The position numbers and the translations under genes were made by a program. DNA of 44,374 nt from a virus (taxonomy: Duplodnaviria; Heunggongvirae; Uroviricota; Caudoviricetes). The notes beneath the pieces were generated by a model. That model was not told the origin of the DNA, searched no databases, and saw nothing but the letters and a program-made list of their open reading frames with translations. The DNA lies in the IMG/VR virus record IMGVR_UViG_2534681761_000010, one strand, 5' to 3'. The number at the start of each line of letters is the position of its first letter. Position 1 is the stretch's first letter. Below, one piece after another: positions 7,785-11,642 of this stretch.

Positions 7785-9134
7785 TTATTCCGTTTTACAT
7801 ATCATAGTAGTCGATTGGAGAATATAGTTTCTGGGAATGTACTCTTCAAAGTGTTCGTCCTTTTTAAATACATGAACTACATTTGGGAATAATTGATAGT
7901 CAACAGGGTGTATAGCGTTTGGATTATGGTACATGTACATGGCTGTACACCATGGTTCTTGATAGTTAGGGTCACTTACATCGGCTGAAAATGGATGTGG
8001 GGCTGCATCCTGATCAGTTTTAACACCACTGACGTACACTTTGAATCCACTCGCCTCTACACCTGCAAGAATTCCCATCCGGTTAAACTTAGGTATGGTT
8101 GCTTGAGTAGTGAGTAAAACGGCAGAAACATAATTATTTTGTTCTGAGCCAAAAAAGTTCGACTTGATACTTCTATTTTCATCTGTATGTCTTTCAATAG
8201 AAATGCCTGACTCAATATCAATCCCGTACAAATAGCTATGCAAGGCTTCGCTTGAGAAGGCCATGGACATTCTTTTTGAATAATCCTGCATTGCTATGAC
8301 AAATGGTTTGTTCTTTGTATGGTTGAGTTCCCAGTAATGAACTTTCTCTGGCTCAGGGCAATGCCGGACTTTTTTTAATAAACTTCTTGCAAACTTAAAA
8401 GGCATGACATTTAGAACATGTTTTCTTAATTCATCCATCTGTTCATCGTTAATGACTTTTCTTTCAAGAGGGGCTTCTGCTTCAGCAATGCTTACAGCCT
8501 CTACAGCAATTTCCACTCCAAATTTAGATAGCAGAAAATCTGGTTGATTGTATTCTCTATTCATTTCAAAGTCGAGTTCATAAAATACAGCGTTCAAATA
8601 TAATTCAAATAACCTTGAATTAAATGCATCACTTTGAAAATCCCTTATAAATATTCCATCAGGATCTTTGAACCAGTATGCAAGTTCCTCAAGAACAATA
8701 TATGCAGGGAAATGAAGAGGGTCTTCGAGGAGCATTTTTATATAAACATTCCTTTTTTTCGCTGGGACCTTACTCAAGAATAATGAAAAAGGTTTGGTTG
8801 ATTCATCGCCTTGCATGAATGTACCATTTTGGTGCTGCGCCAGCATCTTTGGTATGTCATCGTTCAAATTATTAAGCAAGACATCCATTGAATCAAATGA
8901 AGCCAAGACGTTTATTGCTCTGAATTTTTTATCTAAATCCCGACCTAAGACTATTGCGTTAAAATCTTTATCAATATTGCATATGATTATTGTGGATAAC
9001 AATGTTATCCCATTCCCCTCATATTTAAACCAGCGTATCTCCTCAGAAAATGTCTTAAGGTAAGGTGAGCGACCGTAAAAATAAATATCAAATTGTTCTT
9101 TGCTGATCTCACTGAAGTGTAATCCTGCGTTCAT
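7785..9134 (-). CDS. Hypothetical 449-aa protein (AT-rich cargo gene; no motif recognised)
   Basis: Long ORF with AAGGA SD; AT-rich; divergent from the small recombinase gene. Confidence 0.55.
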   Translation of the reverse strand: MNAGLHFSEISKEQFDIYFYGRSPYLKTFSEEIRWFKYEGNGITLLSTIIICNIDKDFNAIVLGRDLDKKFRAINVLASFDSMDVLLNNLNDDIPKMLAQHQNGTFMQGDESTKPFSLFLSKVPAKKRNVYIKMLLEDPLHFPAYIVLEELAYWFKDPDGIFIRDFQSDAFNSRLFELYLNAVFYELDFEMNREYNQPDFLLSKFGVEIAVEAVSIAEAEAPLERKVINDEQMDELRKHVLNVMPFKFARSLLKKVRHCPEPEKVHYWELNHTKNKPFVIAMQDYSKRMSMAFSSEALHSYLYGIDIESGISIERHTDENRSIKSNFFGSEQNNYVSAVLLTTQATIPKFNRMGILAGVEASGFKVYVSGVKTDQDAAPHPFSADVSDPNYQEPWCTAMYMYHNPNAIHPVDYQLFPNVVHVFKKDEHFEEYIPRNYILQSTTMICKTE

Positions 9135-9256
9135 ACCAATTCCTTTTCAATGAATAATTGGCCTTTAGGAGTGATTCCCTTTGTCTTTAATTCAGTTCTA
9201 ACTAGTTCTTTAATCCAATAGCCTAAGCTCATCATGCAGTTGGATCATAAGACAAC

Positions 9257-9285
9257 GCCCTATAGTGCTCGTGATACTATAGGGC
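9257..9285. promoter_or_regulatory. Perfect inverted repeat GCCCTATAGT-N9-ACTATAGGGC in divergent intergenic region
   Basis: 10-bp perfect arms with 9-nt spacer, between the 449-aa gene and the recombinase gene. Confidence 0.4.
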
Positions 9286-9419
9286 ATCTGACCACACTGT
9301 TAACTGGAGTAACGACTATGGCAGGAATACAGCATAACCAAACTCACCCCAAACTTACATAGCGCTTTCTGGCCGTGAGCATAACAAGGTCCACTCCTCG
9401 CTCATAAGGGACAACCATA

Positions 9420-9450
9420 CTCAAATCTCCCACATTGCAGGAGATTTGAG
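9420..9450. promoter_or_regulatory. Perfect inverted repeat CTCAAATCTCC-N9-GGAGATTTGAG overlapping the recombinase Shine-Dalgarno
   Basis: 11-bp perfect arms; right arm contains the GGAG SD, ending 1 nt before ATG at 9452. Confidence 0.45.
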
Positions 9451-9451
9451 T

Positions 9452-10054
9452 ATGAACACGTCACCGTGGAACAAAGACCGTATCATAGGCCAAAAAAGAC
9501 CACTTCAGATATCTCATATCTGGGGTATCCGAATCCGACTTGAACTGGAAGGTAAAACTCGCGATTTAGCTCTGTTCAACATGGCCCTGGATAGTAAGCT
9601 TCGAGGCTGTGATCTGGTCAAACTCAAAGTATCTGATGTTGCATATGGTGGCTCTGTTTCAAGCAGAGCAACGGTGTTGCAACAGAAAACCGGTAGCCCT
9701 GTTCAATTTGAGATAACCAAAGGGACAAGAGAAGCTGTTGCTGCATTGATACAGCTTAGCAATTTGCACAGTAAAGACTTCTTGTTTCGGTCTAGGGTCG
9801 GAACTAACCAGCACATTTCAACCCGGCAATACAACCGAATCTTTCATGGGGGGGTAGAAAAGCTTGGTCTCGAAGATTCGCTTTACAGCACACATTCCAT
9901 GAGAAGAACAAAACCTTACCTGATCTACAAGAAAACCAAGAATCTCCGGGTGATCCAACTTCTGTTGGGTCATAAGAAACTGGAAAGCACAGTCCGTTAT
10001 CTGGGCATTGAAGTCGATGATGCGTTAGAGATTTCTGAATCGATTGAAGTCTAA
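9452..10054 (+). CDS. Small tyrosine recombinase (FimB/FimE/Xer catalytic-domain size class, about 200 aa)
   Basis: Box I-like ALDSKLRGCDLVKLKVSDV (Arg), HSMRRT (H-x-x-R), LLGHKKLESTVRYLG (His..Tyr); too short to carry the arm-binding domain of phage integrases. Confidence 0.7.
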   Translation: MNTSPWNKDRIIGQKRPLQISHIWGIRIRLELEGKTRDLALFNMALDSKLRGCDLVKLKVSDVAYGGSVSSRATVLQQKTGSPVQFEITKGTREAVAALIQLSNLHSKDFLFRSRVGTNQHISTRQYNRIFHGGVEKLGLEDSLYSTHSMRRTKPYLIYKKTKNLRVIQLLLGHKKLESTVRYLGIEVDDALEISESIEV

Positions 10055-10060
10055 GGTTGT

Positions 10061-10082
10061 CAGGGCTGCAACAGCAGCCCTG
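10061..10082 (+). terminator. Stem-loop (9-bp perfect stem CAGGGCTGC, 4-nt loop) directly after recombinase stop; no U-tract
   Basis: CAGGGCTGC-AACA-GCAGCCCTG starting 7 nt after the stop codon. Confidence 0.3.
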
Positions 10083-10413
10083 TGCCATAAGCGGAAGTAT
10101 TTAACAACTATCAGTGTTGTTCAACAGATAAAGGGGCACTTGATTTTTTCTGTTCTCAGGAAATGATAAAAGCGCGTCGGTTCAAGCCTGCTTAACGGGA
10201 GTTTGTTAATCCTGTTGCCGTGACGTTTTGACACCATTATGATGGGGAGACACTTAATGTATGAAGGTTCCGCCACTTATACCTGTCCAACAACTGCCTC
10301 GGATGTTTCTTTGTATGAATAAGTGGTAATGAGTAGTGAATCGCTAACAGTCACCCGAACAATCGGTGCCTGCAATTAATTCTATATTCTAAACGAGGGG
10401 GAGATTATTACAC

Positions 10414-11394
10414 ATGAAATTTAAGGACAAGAACCTTAAGGCTCTCGCGGAATGTATCATAGGAGATAATAAGGCATTTCTGTATCGTTCAAGCAGTCAC
10501 ATCACTGAATTTTTCCAGGACTGCGGCATGGATGTTACTCATGACGGATCCACTCGGTGGAAATGGACGGCCCAGAGGCTTGAAGAACTTCTTTATGAGC
10601 CACAGTCAAAGCCACATACTTTGCCGGAAAGGTTTGTTCATGTGCTCAGAACTTTAATGTTAAAAGAAGATGCAATGGATGACGATCCAGGAAGATTAAA
10701 GGCGCTTGAAGAACTGAACAAGCCTTTGATGCGGGAAGGCTATGAGGCATTCTATGGTGACGATCGCCTTTTGTATATACGCCATACCGATACCAAAACG
10801 GTTTCAGTCAGTAATAACCCTCATCGGCCCTTAACGCCTCACGAAGTAGAATGCAGAAGGTTACTGACCGCGTTTCTTGATACCTGCTCAGAAGATGAGT
10901 TAATAGAAGATATTCTCCTTCCTTTATTCCGGCAACTTGGTTTTCACCGGATAACAGCAGTGGGACATAAAGATAAAGCGCTGGAATACGGGAAAGACAT
11001 CTGGATGAAGTTCACACTGCCAACTCAGCATGTTCTTTATTTCGGCATTCAGGCAAAAAAAGGTAAGTTGGATGCGTCCGGTGCCAGCAAATCTACGAAT
11101 TCAAACGTGGCAGAAATCTTCAACCAGGTACTGATGATGCTTGGCCATGAAATATTTGACCCAGAAACAAATAGAAAGGTGCTGGTAGATCATGCCTTTA
11201 TCGTTGCTGGCGGAGAAATTACTAAACAGGCGAGGAACTGGCTGGGCGGGAAACTTGATGCCAGCAAAAGAAGCCAGATAATATTTATGGACCGGGAAGA
11301 CATTCTTAATTTATATACTGTAAGTAATGTACCTCTGCCAACAGGTGCTCTCATCTCTGATGATGCCGTTAAGAACGATGATATTCCTTTCTAA
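10414..11394 (+). CDS. Hypothetical 326-aa protein, possible PD-(D/E)xK-like nuclease fold
   Basis: Strong SD GAGGGGGAG; motif GKDIWMKF...YFGIQAKKGK is compatible with D...(E/Q)xK but unverified. Confidence 0.5.
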   Translation: MKFKDKNLKALAECIIGDNKAFLYRSSSHITEFFQDCGMDVTHDGSTRWKWTAQRLEELLYEPQSKPHTLPERFVHVLRTLMLKEDAMDDDPGRLKALEELNKPLMREGYEAFYGDDRLLYIRHTDTKTVSVSNNPHRPLTPHEVECRRLLTAFLDTCSEDELIEDILLPLFRQLGFHRITAVGHKDKALEYGKDIWMKFTLPTQHVLYFGIQAKKGKLDASGASKSTNSNVAEIFNQVLMMLGHEIFDPETNRKVLVDHAFIVAGGEITKQARNWLGGKLDASKRSQIIFMDREDILNLYTVSNVPLPTGALISDDAVKNDDIPF

Positions 11395-11618
11395 TCAGAA
11401 GTACGTCTTTTTCTGAAAGAATACGTGATAGGTAGCCACACCACACCTTTAGTGACCCCTTAATCTGGTAATATAACAGCCCGTATGAATGTCCGCGGCA
11501 TCGCGGGCTGAAATTTATTAAAAATACTTATTCATCAAGCTGGAGTAGTTTGCCGAGTAACTGTAAACGCCCAACTTAACCGGACCATTCACTTTTAGAT
11601 TGCTACCAGCAAACCAAC

Positions 11619-11642
11619 TTCCGTTTCTCGCTCAAAGCGGAC
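11619..11642. repeat. 24-bp palindromic element copy C (TTCCGTTTC-TCGCTC-AAAGCGGAC)
   Basis: About 20 of 24 identical to B1 by eye, same spacer TCGCTC; marks the right edge of the AT-rich island. Confidence 0.55.

Follow-up and report, generated by a model that had tools for sequence, protein, structure and literature searches.

PD-T7-1, a single-gene anti-phage defence with a putative PD-(D/E)xK nuclease core, on a palindrome-bordered block of a lambdoid prophage island

PD-T7-1 and its counterpart in the window

PD-T7-1 is one of 21 systems that were recovered by functional selection of E. coli isolates (Vassallo et al. 2022, Nat Microbiol, PMC9519451). It comes from strain ECOR46 (protein RCQ85672.1, contig QOYF01000088, ORF 2183-3533, 1350 nt), and the published clone contained this ORF alone, with flanks of 45 nt on one side and 302 nt on the opposite one (PMC9519451). 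[quoted passage not shown] A homologue from NILS69 protects against a Teseptimavirus and shrinks T7 plaques (PMC12409345). Both PD-T7-1 and PD-T7-5 are labelled "Nuclease" in the source table, and HHpred gave weak PD-(D/E)xK matches for PD-T7-1 at residues 171-219, Hjc among them at 80% probability (PMC9519451). A search of papers naming the system turned up neither biochemistry nor mutants of PD-T7-1.

The window, that is, the whole 44,374-nt stretch of viral DNA analysed here (IMG/VR record IMGVR_UViG_2534681761_000010), carries a minus-strand ORF with an ATG start, whose position and 449-aa length in the ORF list are exactly those given by an earlier sequence-only reading (Table 1). Its product (52 kDa, predicted pI 5.5) matches the PADLOC PD-T7-1 profile (PDLC04073) over its full length: E=7.3e-157, 520.7 bits, with residues 8-447 on profile positions 2-448 of 452. 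The gene has the same length, 1350 nt, as the ECOR46 reference, and the window copy keeps every family-invariant residue. The PADLOC PD-T7-5 profile (PDLC04110) matches more weakly (E=3.3e-40) and only over residues 117-427, and PHROG 8571, to which no function is assigned, matches residues 111-449 (E=5e-120). On these profile matches the window protein is almost certainly PD-T7-1 and the product of a defence gene. PD-T7-1 in the window is thus a real defence gene that has been known since 2022 and is not new; what RefSeq calls a "hypothetical protein" can now be annotated cleanly as a validated anti-phage system.

The ORF is a genuine gene and no chance ORF, since the exact protein (RefSeq WP_001678529.1) is present on at least 1000 contigs, 203 homologues are found at E<=1e-3 in a 90%-identity database, and invariant columns are numerous along the entire length of the family alignment. 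The family profile matches 2679 clusters at the 50% identity level. The gene is present over at least 80% of its length in 201 of the 5426 complete E. coli genomes (~4%), and all 201 full-length E. coli copies are apparently ~99% identical or more. The foreign base composition noted in the sequence-only reading is borne out by a G+C content of 36.6% in the ORF (GC3 33.8%) versus 51.9% in the window outside the 6232-11642 island. So is its own ribosome-binding site, AAGGA (Table 1). The divergent orientation with respect to the recombinase gene was also correctly read; the two are separated by a 317-nt spacer, with the recombinase on the plus strand. The GIY-YIG-like ORF does lie 3' of PD-T7-1 on the same strand, and the two palindromic elements that the reading had called B1 and B2 were found between them, at 7406-7429 and 7448-7471.

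The sequence-only reading had guessed at an accessory anti-phage or abortive-infection gene and had proposed a search with defence HMMs; the guess is supported by the full-length PADLOC match to an experimentally validated system. Its description of the protein as one of unknown function holds for Pfam and NCBIfam, neither of which gave any match, in line with its statement that no motif could be recognised; it does not hold for the literature, where the protein is known as PD-T7-1. When 54 family members were searched one by one against Pfam at E<=1, only scattered single matches appeared. Sequence searches of the PDB (2026 copy), run once with the protein itself and once with the profile of its family, returned nothing even at E<=10, and that copy holds no solved structure of the family. 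No GIY-YIG, HNH or HEPN motif or profile was found in the protein with Pfam, NCBIfam and PADLOC. A structural or housekeeping role was considered and rejected: no such homology was found, and the protein gave the full-length PD-T7-1 match instead. The reading had named homology of that kind as arguing against a defence role, and with no housekeeping or structural relatives found that argument falls away.

Some records (KY653118.1, CP125156.1 and the UniRef names of the relatives P0051 and P0067) carry the name "glycosaminoglycan attachment site protein"; no profile or structural support for this name was found here.

Table 1. Features of the PD-T7-1 locus and its island, in window positions
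Feature	Position	Strand	Remarks
PD-T7-1 coding sequence	7785..9134	minus	449 aa plus stop; ORF list, PADLOC, PHROG 8571, WP_001678529.1
Accessory N-terminal domain, ~aa 1-105	8820..9134	minus	four-stranded beta-meander plus helices (AF2 model)
Putative PD-(D/E)xK nuclease core, aa 167-257	8364..8636	minus	holds Q167, R174, E177, P198-D199, E212, K255
C-terminal alpha/beta region, aa 258-449	7788..8363	minus	invariant W268, G304, F328, F350, R352, E393, W395
Ribosome-binding site AAGGA	9141..9145	minus	from sequence; 6 nt 5' of the PD-T7-1 ATG
Palindrome CCCTATAGT-9 nt-ACTATAGGG	9258..9284	minus	9-bp arms; overlaps the -10 hexamer of the predicted promoter
Promoter-like TTAACA-16 nt-TATAGT	9276..9303	minus	10/12 matches; ~140 nt 5' of the PD-T7-1 ATG
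Conserved PD-T7-1 block	7448..9412	minus	1965 bp; nearly unchanged in unrelated phages
Site A GTCCACTCCTCGCTCATAAGGGAC	9389..9412		promoter-side border of the conserved PD-T7-1 block
Site B GTCCGCTCTGTGCAAAGAGCGGAC	7448..7471		9-bp perfect hairpin; block border downstream of PD-T7-1
Order of elements, left		plus	B 6232-6255, GIY-YIG gene, A 7406-7429, 18 nt, B 7448-7471
Order of elements, right		plus	PD-T7-1, A 9389-9412, recombinase and 326-aa genes, A 11619-11642
GIY-YIG-like protein, 314 aa	6293-7237	minus	sub-threshold N-terminal Pfam GIY-YIG match, E=0.017
Perfect 15-bp inverted repeat CATACTCAAATCTCC / GGAGATTTGAGTATG	9416-9454		covers the recombinase ribosome-binding site and start codon
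Tyrosine recombinase, 200 aa	9452-10054	plus	Pfam Phage_integrase E=2e-17; site A ~40 nt upstream of start
326-aa protein	10414-11394	plus	3' of the recombinase gene, inside the island

Domain architecture and the putative nuclease core

The AF2 model of the PD-T7-1 protein (pLDDT 87.6, pTM 0.88) shows an N-terminal accessory domain, followed by the putative nuclease core and a C-terminal alpha/beta region. An alignment of 54 members, reaching down to 27% identity, has Q167, F171, R174, E177, P198, D199, E212 and K255 as invariant positions, and the C-terminal invariants of Table 1 come from the same alignment. In the model, E177 lies on the helix 171-186, D199 opens the strand 200-204, E212 lies on the strand 207-216, and K255 ends the helix 230-257. 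The published HHpred matches coincide with the putative core stretch. The canonical (D/E)xK lysine is missing, the residue at +2 after E212 being a valine (E212-A213-V214), and we infer that K255 takes its place. As modelled, the layout of the core is the usual one for the PD-(D/E)xK superfamily except for the position of the lysine; by fold the protein is a PD-(D/E)xK member whose motif is atypical. The four residues E177, D199, E212 and K255 are ready targets for mutation.

The closest folds include those of the XisH-like protein 2okf and the CdiA-CT toxin domains 4g6v, 4g6u, 4zqu and 5j4a, at 10-15% identity. The structural match list includes LlaBIII, BsmI, FokI, Vsr, NucC, HamA, Shedu SduA, Can2, Hjc and NgoMIV. 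A Foldseek search with the whole chain against PDB and BFVD gave nothing significant (TM below 0.15).

The accessory domain has its own invariant charged residues (D55, D57, R65, D66 and R72). It is found at the opposite end of the relative P0199, in which aa 365-456 align with residues 10-103 here, and family forms of 345-347 aa are without it. A module that can be moved or dropped around a fixed core fits a regulatory or sensing role, making the domain a candidate infection sensor. That the short forms might carry it as a separate neighbouring gene was considered and rejected: the 145-aa neighbour of P0276, judged by its LDHINGV and CPNCN motifs, appears to be HNH-type and unrelated.

A 347-aa member without the accessory domain is encoded on the metagenome contig SRR13287451_186979 (L008 3001-4487). 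It is preceded there by the gene for a 366-aa TIR-type (CAP12-PCTIR_TIR) protein, and the gene for a 145-aa HNH-motif protein begins 5 nt downstream of it. Such a neighbourhood hints that the nuclease core can also act as part of multi-gene arrangements.

Phage contexts, palindromic borders and the recombinase

An identical 5.5-kb stretch is present in E. coli WCHEC035148, in a lambdoid prophage beside rspA and rspB, where the island is flanked by the DUF977 gene and hokD. Copies of the protein that are 98-99.6% identical occur in three other phages, alone in each: Escherichia phage mEp460_ev081, in the same slot as in the window; the Yersinia P2-like phage vB_YpM_46, flanked by the tail-fibre assembly gene and, on the other side, sheath gene FI; and Morganella phage IME1369_01, beside umuDC. 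The GIY-YIG, recombinase and 326-aa genes are absent near PD-T7-1 in all three, and several other viral contigs likewise have PD-T7-1 without them. These solitary copies, together with the published single-gene clone, show that the neighbours in the window are not partners. The link to the GIY-YIG gene at which the sequence-only reading had hinted is therefore not required, and a two-gene system with the GIY-YIG protein is rejected: the clone lacks that gene, and near-identical copies of PD-T7-1 occur without it.

The promoter-like site upstream of PD-T7-1 is kept in four of the four phage contexts and, if the 302-nt flank of the published clone is taken as the upstream one, probably falls inside that clone. 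The palindrome overlapping it has conserved arms and differs only in its loop in Morganella phage IME1369_01; it may be an operator for some regulator. The non-coding tail of the block contains, in all four phage contexts, a fragment of a helix-turn-helix/AlpA-family regulator gene (7643-7723, plus strand; RefSeq annotation) from which the N-terminus is missing. Possibly the fragment is left over from a former location next to an AlpA-type gene.

A four-way DNA alignment of these contexts shows ~99% identity that starts at site A and stops at site B. Both sites are 24-nt palindromes with the arms GTCCGCT/AGCGGAC and differ in their centres, CTCGCTC in A and TGTGCCA, or more generally TGTGCMA, in B. 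Each gene block of the island is bracketed by such sites, and A-18 nt-B composites stand at the block junctions. Lambdoid, P2-like and Morganella phages have PD-T7-1 proteins of at least 98% identity, on a block whose borders are exact and common to other defence cargo.

The same borders recur around other genes. A scan of IMG/VR for site B gave 34 viral contigs. In P2-like contigs B lies ~60-70 nt after the tail-fibre assembly gene G and A, where detected, ~190-215 nt before FI. Lambdoid contigs have B at the start of the slot that follows the DUF977 gene, and this slot contains PD-T7-1 alone, an uncharacterised 484-aa protein, or the four-gene island of the window. The cargo between the sites in the P2-like contigs varies and includes PD-T7-1, a Lit-like peptidase with an HNH nuclease, and several uncharacterised proteins. 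On one contig, whose flanks are unplaced, a ThsB-like TIR protein (PADLOC E=9e-128) lies in a B...A pair. Nilsson et al. (2004, Mol Biol Evol 21:1) may have described A/B-type sites in P2-like phages.

The 200-aa tyrosine recombinase is a candidate mover of the blocks. About 50 nt upstream of its start, site A included, recur in some 600 E. coli genomes, and in all three of the E. coli genomes inspected this stretch precedes a homologous 200-aa recombinase gene. The homologues in E. coli Nissle 1917, ATCC 25922 and EC6868 have variable cargo alongside, which in Nissle 1917 is HEC-08. Fourteen loci of recombinase homologues (12 from other Enterobacterales species and two from E. coli) contain 34 A/B-type sites in 209 kb, where 0.25 sites are expected from shuffled sequence, and A-18 nt-B composites recur among the real ones. 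The sites form arrays to either side of the recombinase gene. The recombinase family is widespread: at least 547 stretches of species-representative genomes have a member, and it extends, at 60% identity or more, into Pseudomonas and Betaproteobacteria. No close solved relative of the recombinase was found by sequence. The inverted repeat over the start of its gene changes in concert in the two arms in distant homologues, so that complementarity is kept (GTCCTCC...GGAGGAC in Pseudomonas); this pattern suggests a hairpin that would hide the recombinase ribosome-binding site.

The borders of the A/B blocks and their varied cargo are plain from these comparisons. It is possible, and is offered here with considerable reserve, that the A/B-bordered stretches are exchangeable defence blocks of which PD-T7-1 is one cargo, and that the recombinase swaps A with A and B with B; what the recombinase does and how blocks are exchanged are what we infer from this arrangement. 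Were this so, an integron-like system, mechanistically distinct from integrons, would be carrying defence genes from one prophage to another, unrelated one.

The remaining two island genes are candidates for defence genes by their position alone. The GIY-YIG-like gene lies in its own B...A block, has 36% G+C and occurs in Salmonella and Erwinia with at least 90% identity; its protein gave only weak sub-threshold matches in PADLOC. The 326-aa protein gave no match in Pfam, NCBIfam, PADLOC and PHROGs. Its sequence includes D...(I)QAK (GKDIW...YFGIQAKKGK), similar to the motif of Mrr-type restriction endonucleases, and it may be another uncharacterised nuclease.

Proposed mechanism and comparison with known systems

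Taken as a whole, PD-T7-1 is very probably a self-sufficient single-protein defence with its own promoter, and probably a gated nuclease. In such a system the central part of the protein would act as a metal-dependent nuclease of the PD-(D/E)xK type, with a probable catalytic set of E177 from a helix, D199 and E212 from neighbouring strands and K255 from the next helix. The ~100-residue accessory domain would serve as the sensor or gate that keeps the nuclease off until infection. After an infection cue the nuclease would cut phage nucleic acid, most likely DNA, and T-even and T7-like phages would be stopped. Self and non-self would be told apart by the infection cue and not by host methylation, since there is no partner methylase. 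The parts of this proposal differ in strength. That the nuclease active site does the work is reasonably probable; that phage DNA is the direct target is put forward more tentatively. DNA is a likelier substrate than RNA, and an RNA substrate is possible in that the closest folds include tRNA-cleaving toxins.

In another reading, PD-T7-1 is an abortive-infection toxin: a triggered nuclease that destroys host and phage nucleic acid indiscriminately, or that cuts tRNA or rRNA in the manner of CdiA-CT, so that the infected cell dies or stalls before phage release. We consider this somewhat unlikely. Among the putative DNase systems of the source study, 7 of 11 gave direct immunity (PMC9519451), and more than 200 complete E. 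coli genomes stably carry PD-T7-1 with no antitoxin-like partner. Partnerless carriage is unusual for an ungated toxin, yet it is compatible with tight autoinhibition. Alternatively, PD-T7-1 might be a modification-dependent, type IV-like restriction enzyme directed at T-even DNA, in which the cytosine is glucosyl-hydroxymethylcytosine. A nuclease that is a single protein and has no methylase would suit this role, and one review places PD-T7-1 among restriction-like systems. T7-like DNA is not known to carry a modification of the glucosyl-hydroxymethylcytosine type. [quoted passage not shown] This reading is improbable.

Two further readings concern the surroundings of the gene. It is very improbable that PD-T7-1 works only with the GIY-YIG-like protein or other island genes, as a multi-gene system. 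PD-T7-1 and the GIY-YIG gene are AT-rich neighbours on the same strand, and the four-gene island is unchanged in several viral contigs; however, the 45-nt and 302-nt flanks of the published clone are too small for the 945-nt GIY-YIG gene (PMC9519451), near-identical copies exist without any of the three neighbours, and the two genes are parted by an A/B junction of the kind that bounds independent blocks. PD-(D/E)xK enzymes serve transposons elsewhere, TnsA being an example. The sharply defined ends of the block and its movement between unrelated phages could be read in the same sense, with the nuclease serving the mobility (homing or transposition) of its own DNA block and not defence. This is hardly credible: blocks with A/B ends also carry the ThsB-like TIR protein, the Lit-like peptidase with its HNH nuclease, and HEC-08, and since the same A and B ends surround unrelated cargo, it is not the cargo protein that serves them. 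For PD-T7-1 a defence phenotype is moreover published (PMC9519451).

Compared with the PD-T7-1 reference by profile, gene length, organisation and context, the window copy shows no difference: it matches the full-length profile, is a single gene of 1350 nt with its own promoter region, and lies in a prophage hotspot of the same species. PD-T7-5 (~390 aa) is homologous to the window protein in the nuclease core and the C-terminal region, but its profile leaves out the ~105-residue accessory domain, and it represents a sister family and not the same one. Shedu SduA, Hachiman HamA, NucC and Can2 are likewise single-protein PD-(D/E)xK nucleases; they have no detectable sequence similarity to PD-T7-1 and carry other accessory domains, and it is in PD-T7-1 that the motif lysine is displaced. 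The XisH-like protein 2okf and the CdiA-CT toxins are domains or chains of 116-213 residues, whereas PD-T7-1 has 449 aa. CdiA-CT toxins are delivered between bacteria and neutralised by immunity proteins; an immunity gene is absent at PD-T7-1.

With classical restriction enzymes the PD-T7-1 protein shares no sequence similarity. No methyltransferase was found in the PD-T7-1 block or the island, and PD-T7-1 is therefore not a classical restriction-modification system of types I-III. Type IV-like restriction would account for the strong effect against T-even phages but not for the selection with T7.

The block itself can be compared with known hotspots and cassettes. In vB_YpM_46 it is found in the interval from the tail-fibre assembly gene to FI, which we take to be the Z/fun position on the P2 map, and other P2-like contigs have other cargo there. 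Unlike the variable Z/fun locus of P2-like phages (Nilsson et al. 2004) and the defence hotspots of P2 and P4 (Rousset et al. 2022), the window block lies in a lambdoid prophage. An integron gene cassette was considered for the PD-T7-1 block and rejected, the recombinase score and the type of site both being wrong. Integron cassettes depend on an IntI-type integrase with an extra domain and on attC sites with R''/L''-L'/R' boxes. The window recombinase has only 200 aa and scores 17 bits with the integron-integrase models, far below their cut-offs of 435 and 265, and the 24-nt palindromes at the borders have GTCCGCT arms in place of GTTRRRY cores. The present analysis extends what was known of PD-T7-1 with an E-D-E-K set that is invariant in the family, an accessory domain that can change place, and block borders that are common to other defence cargo.
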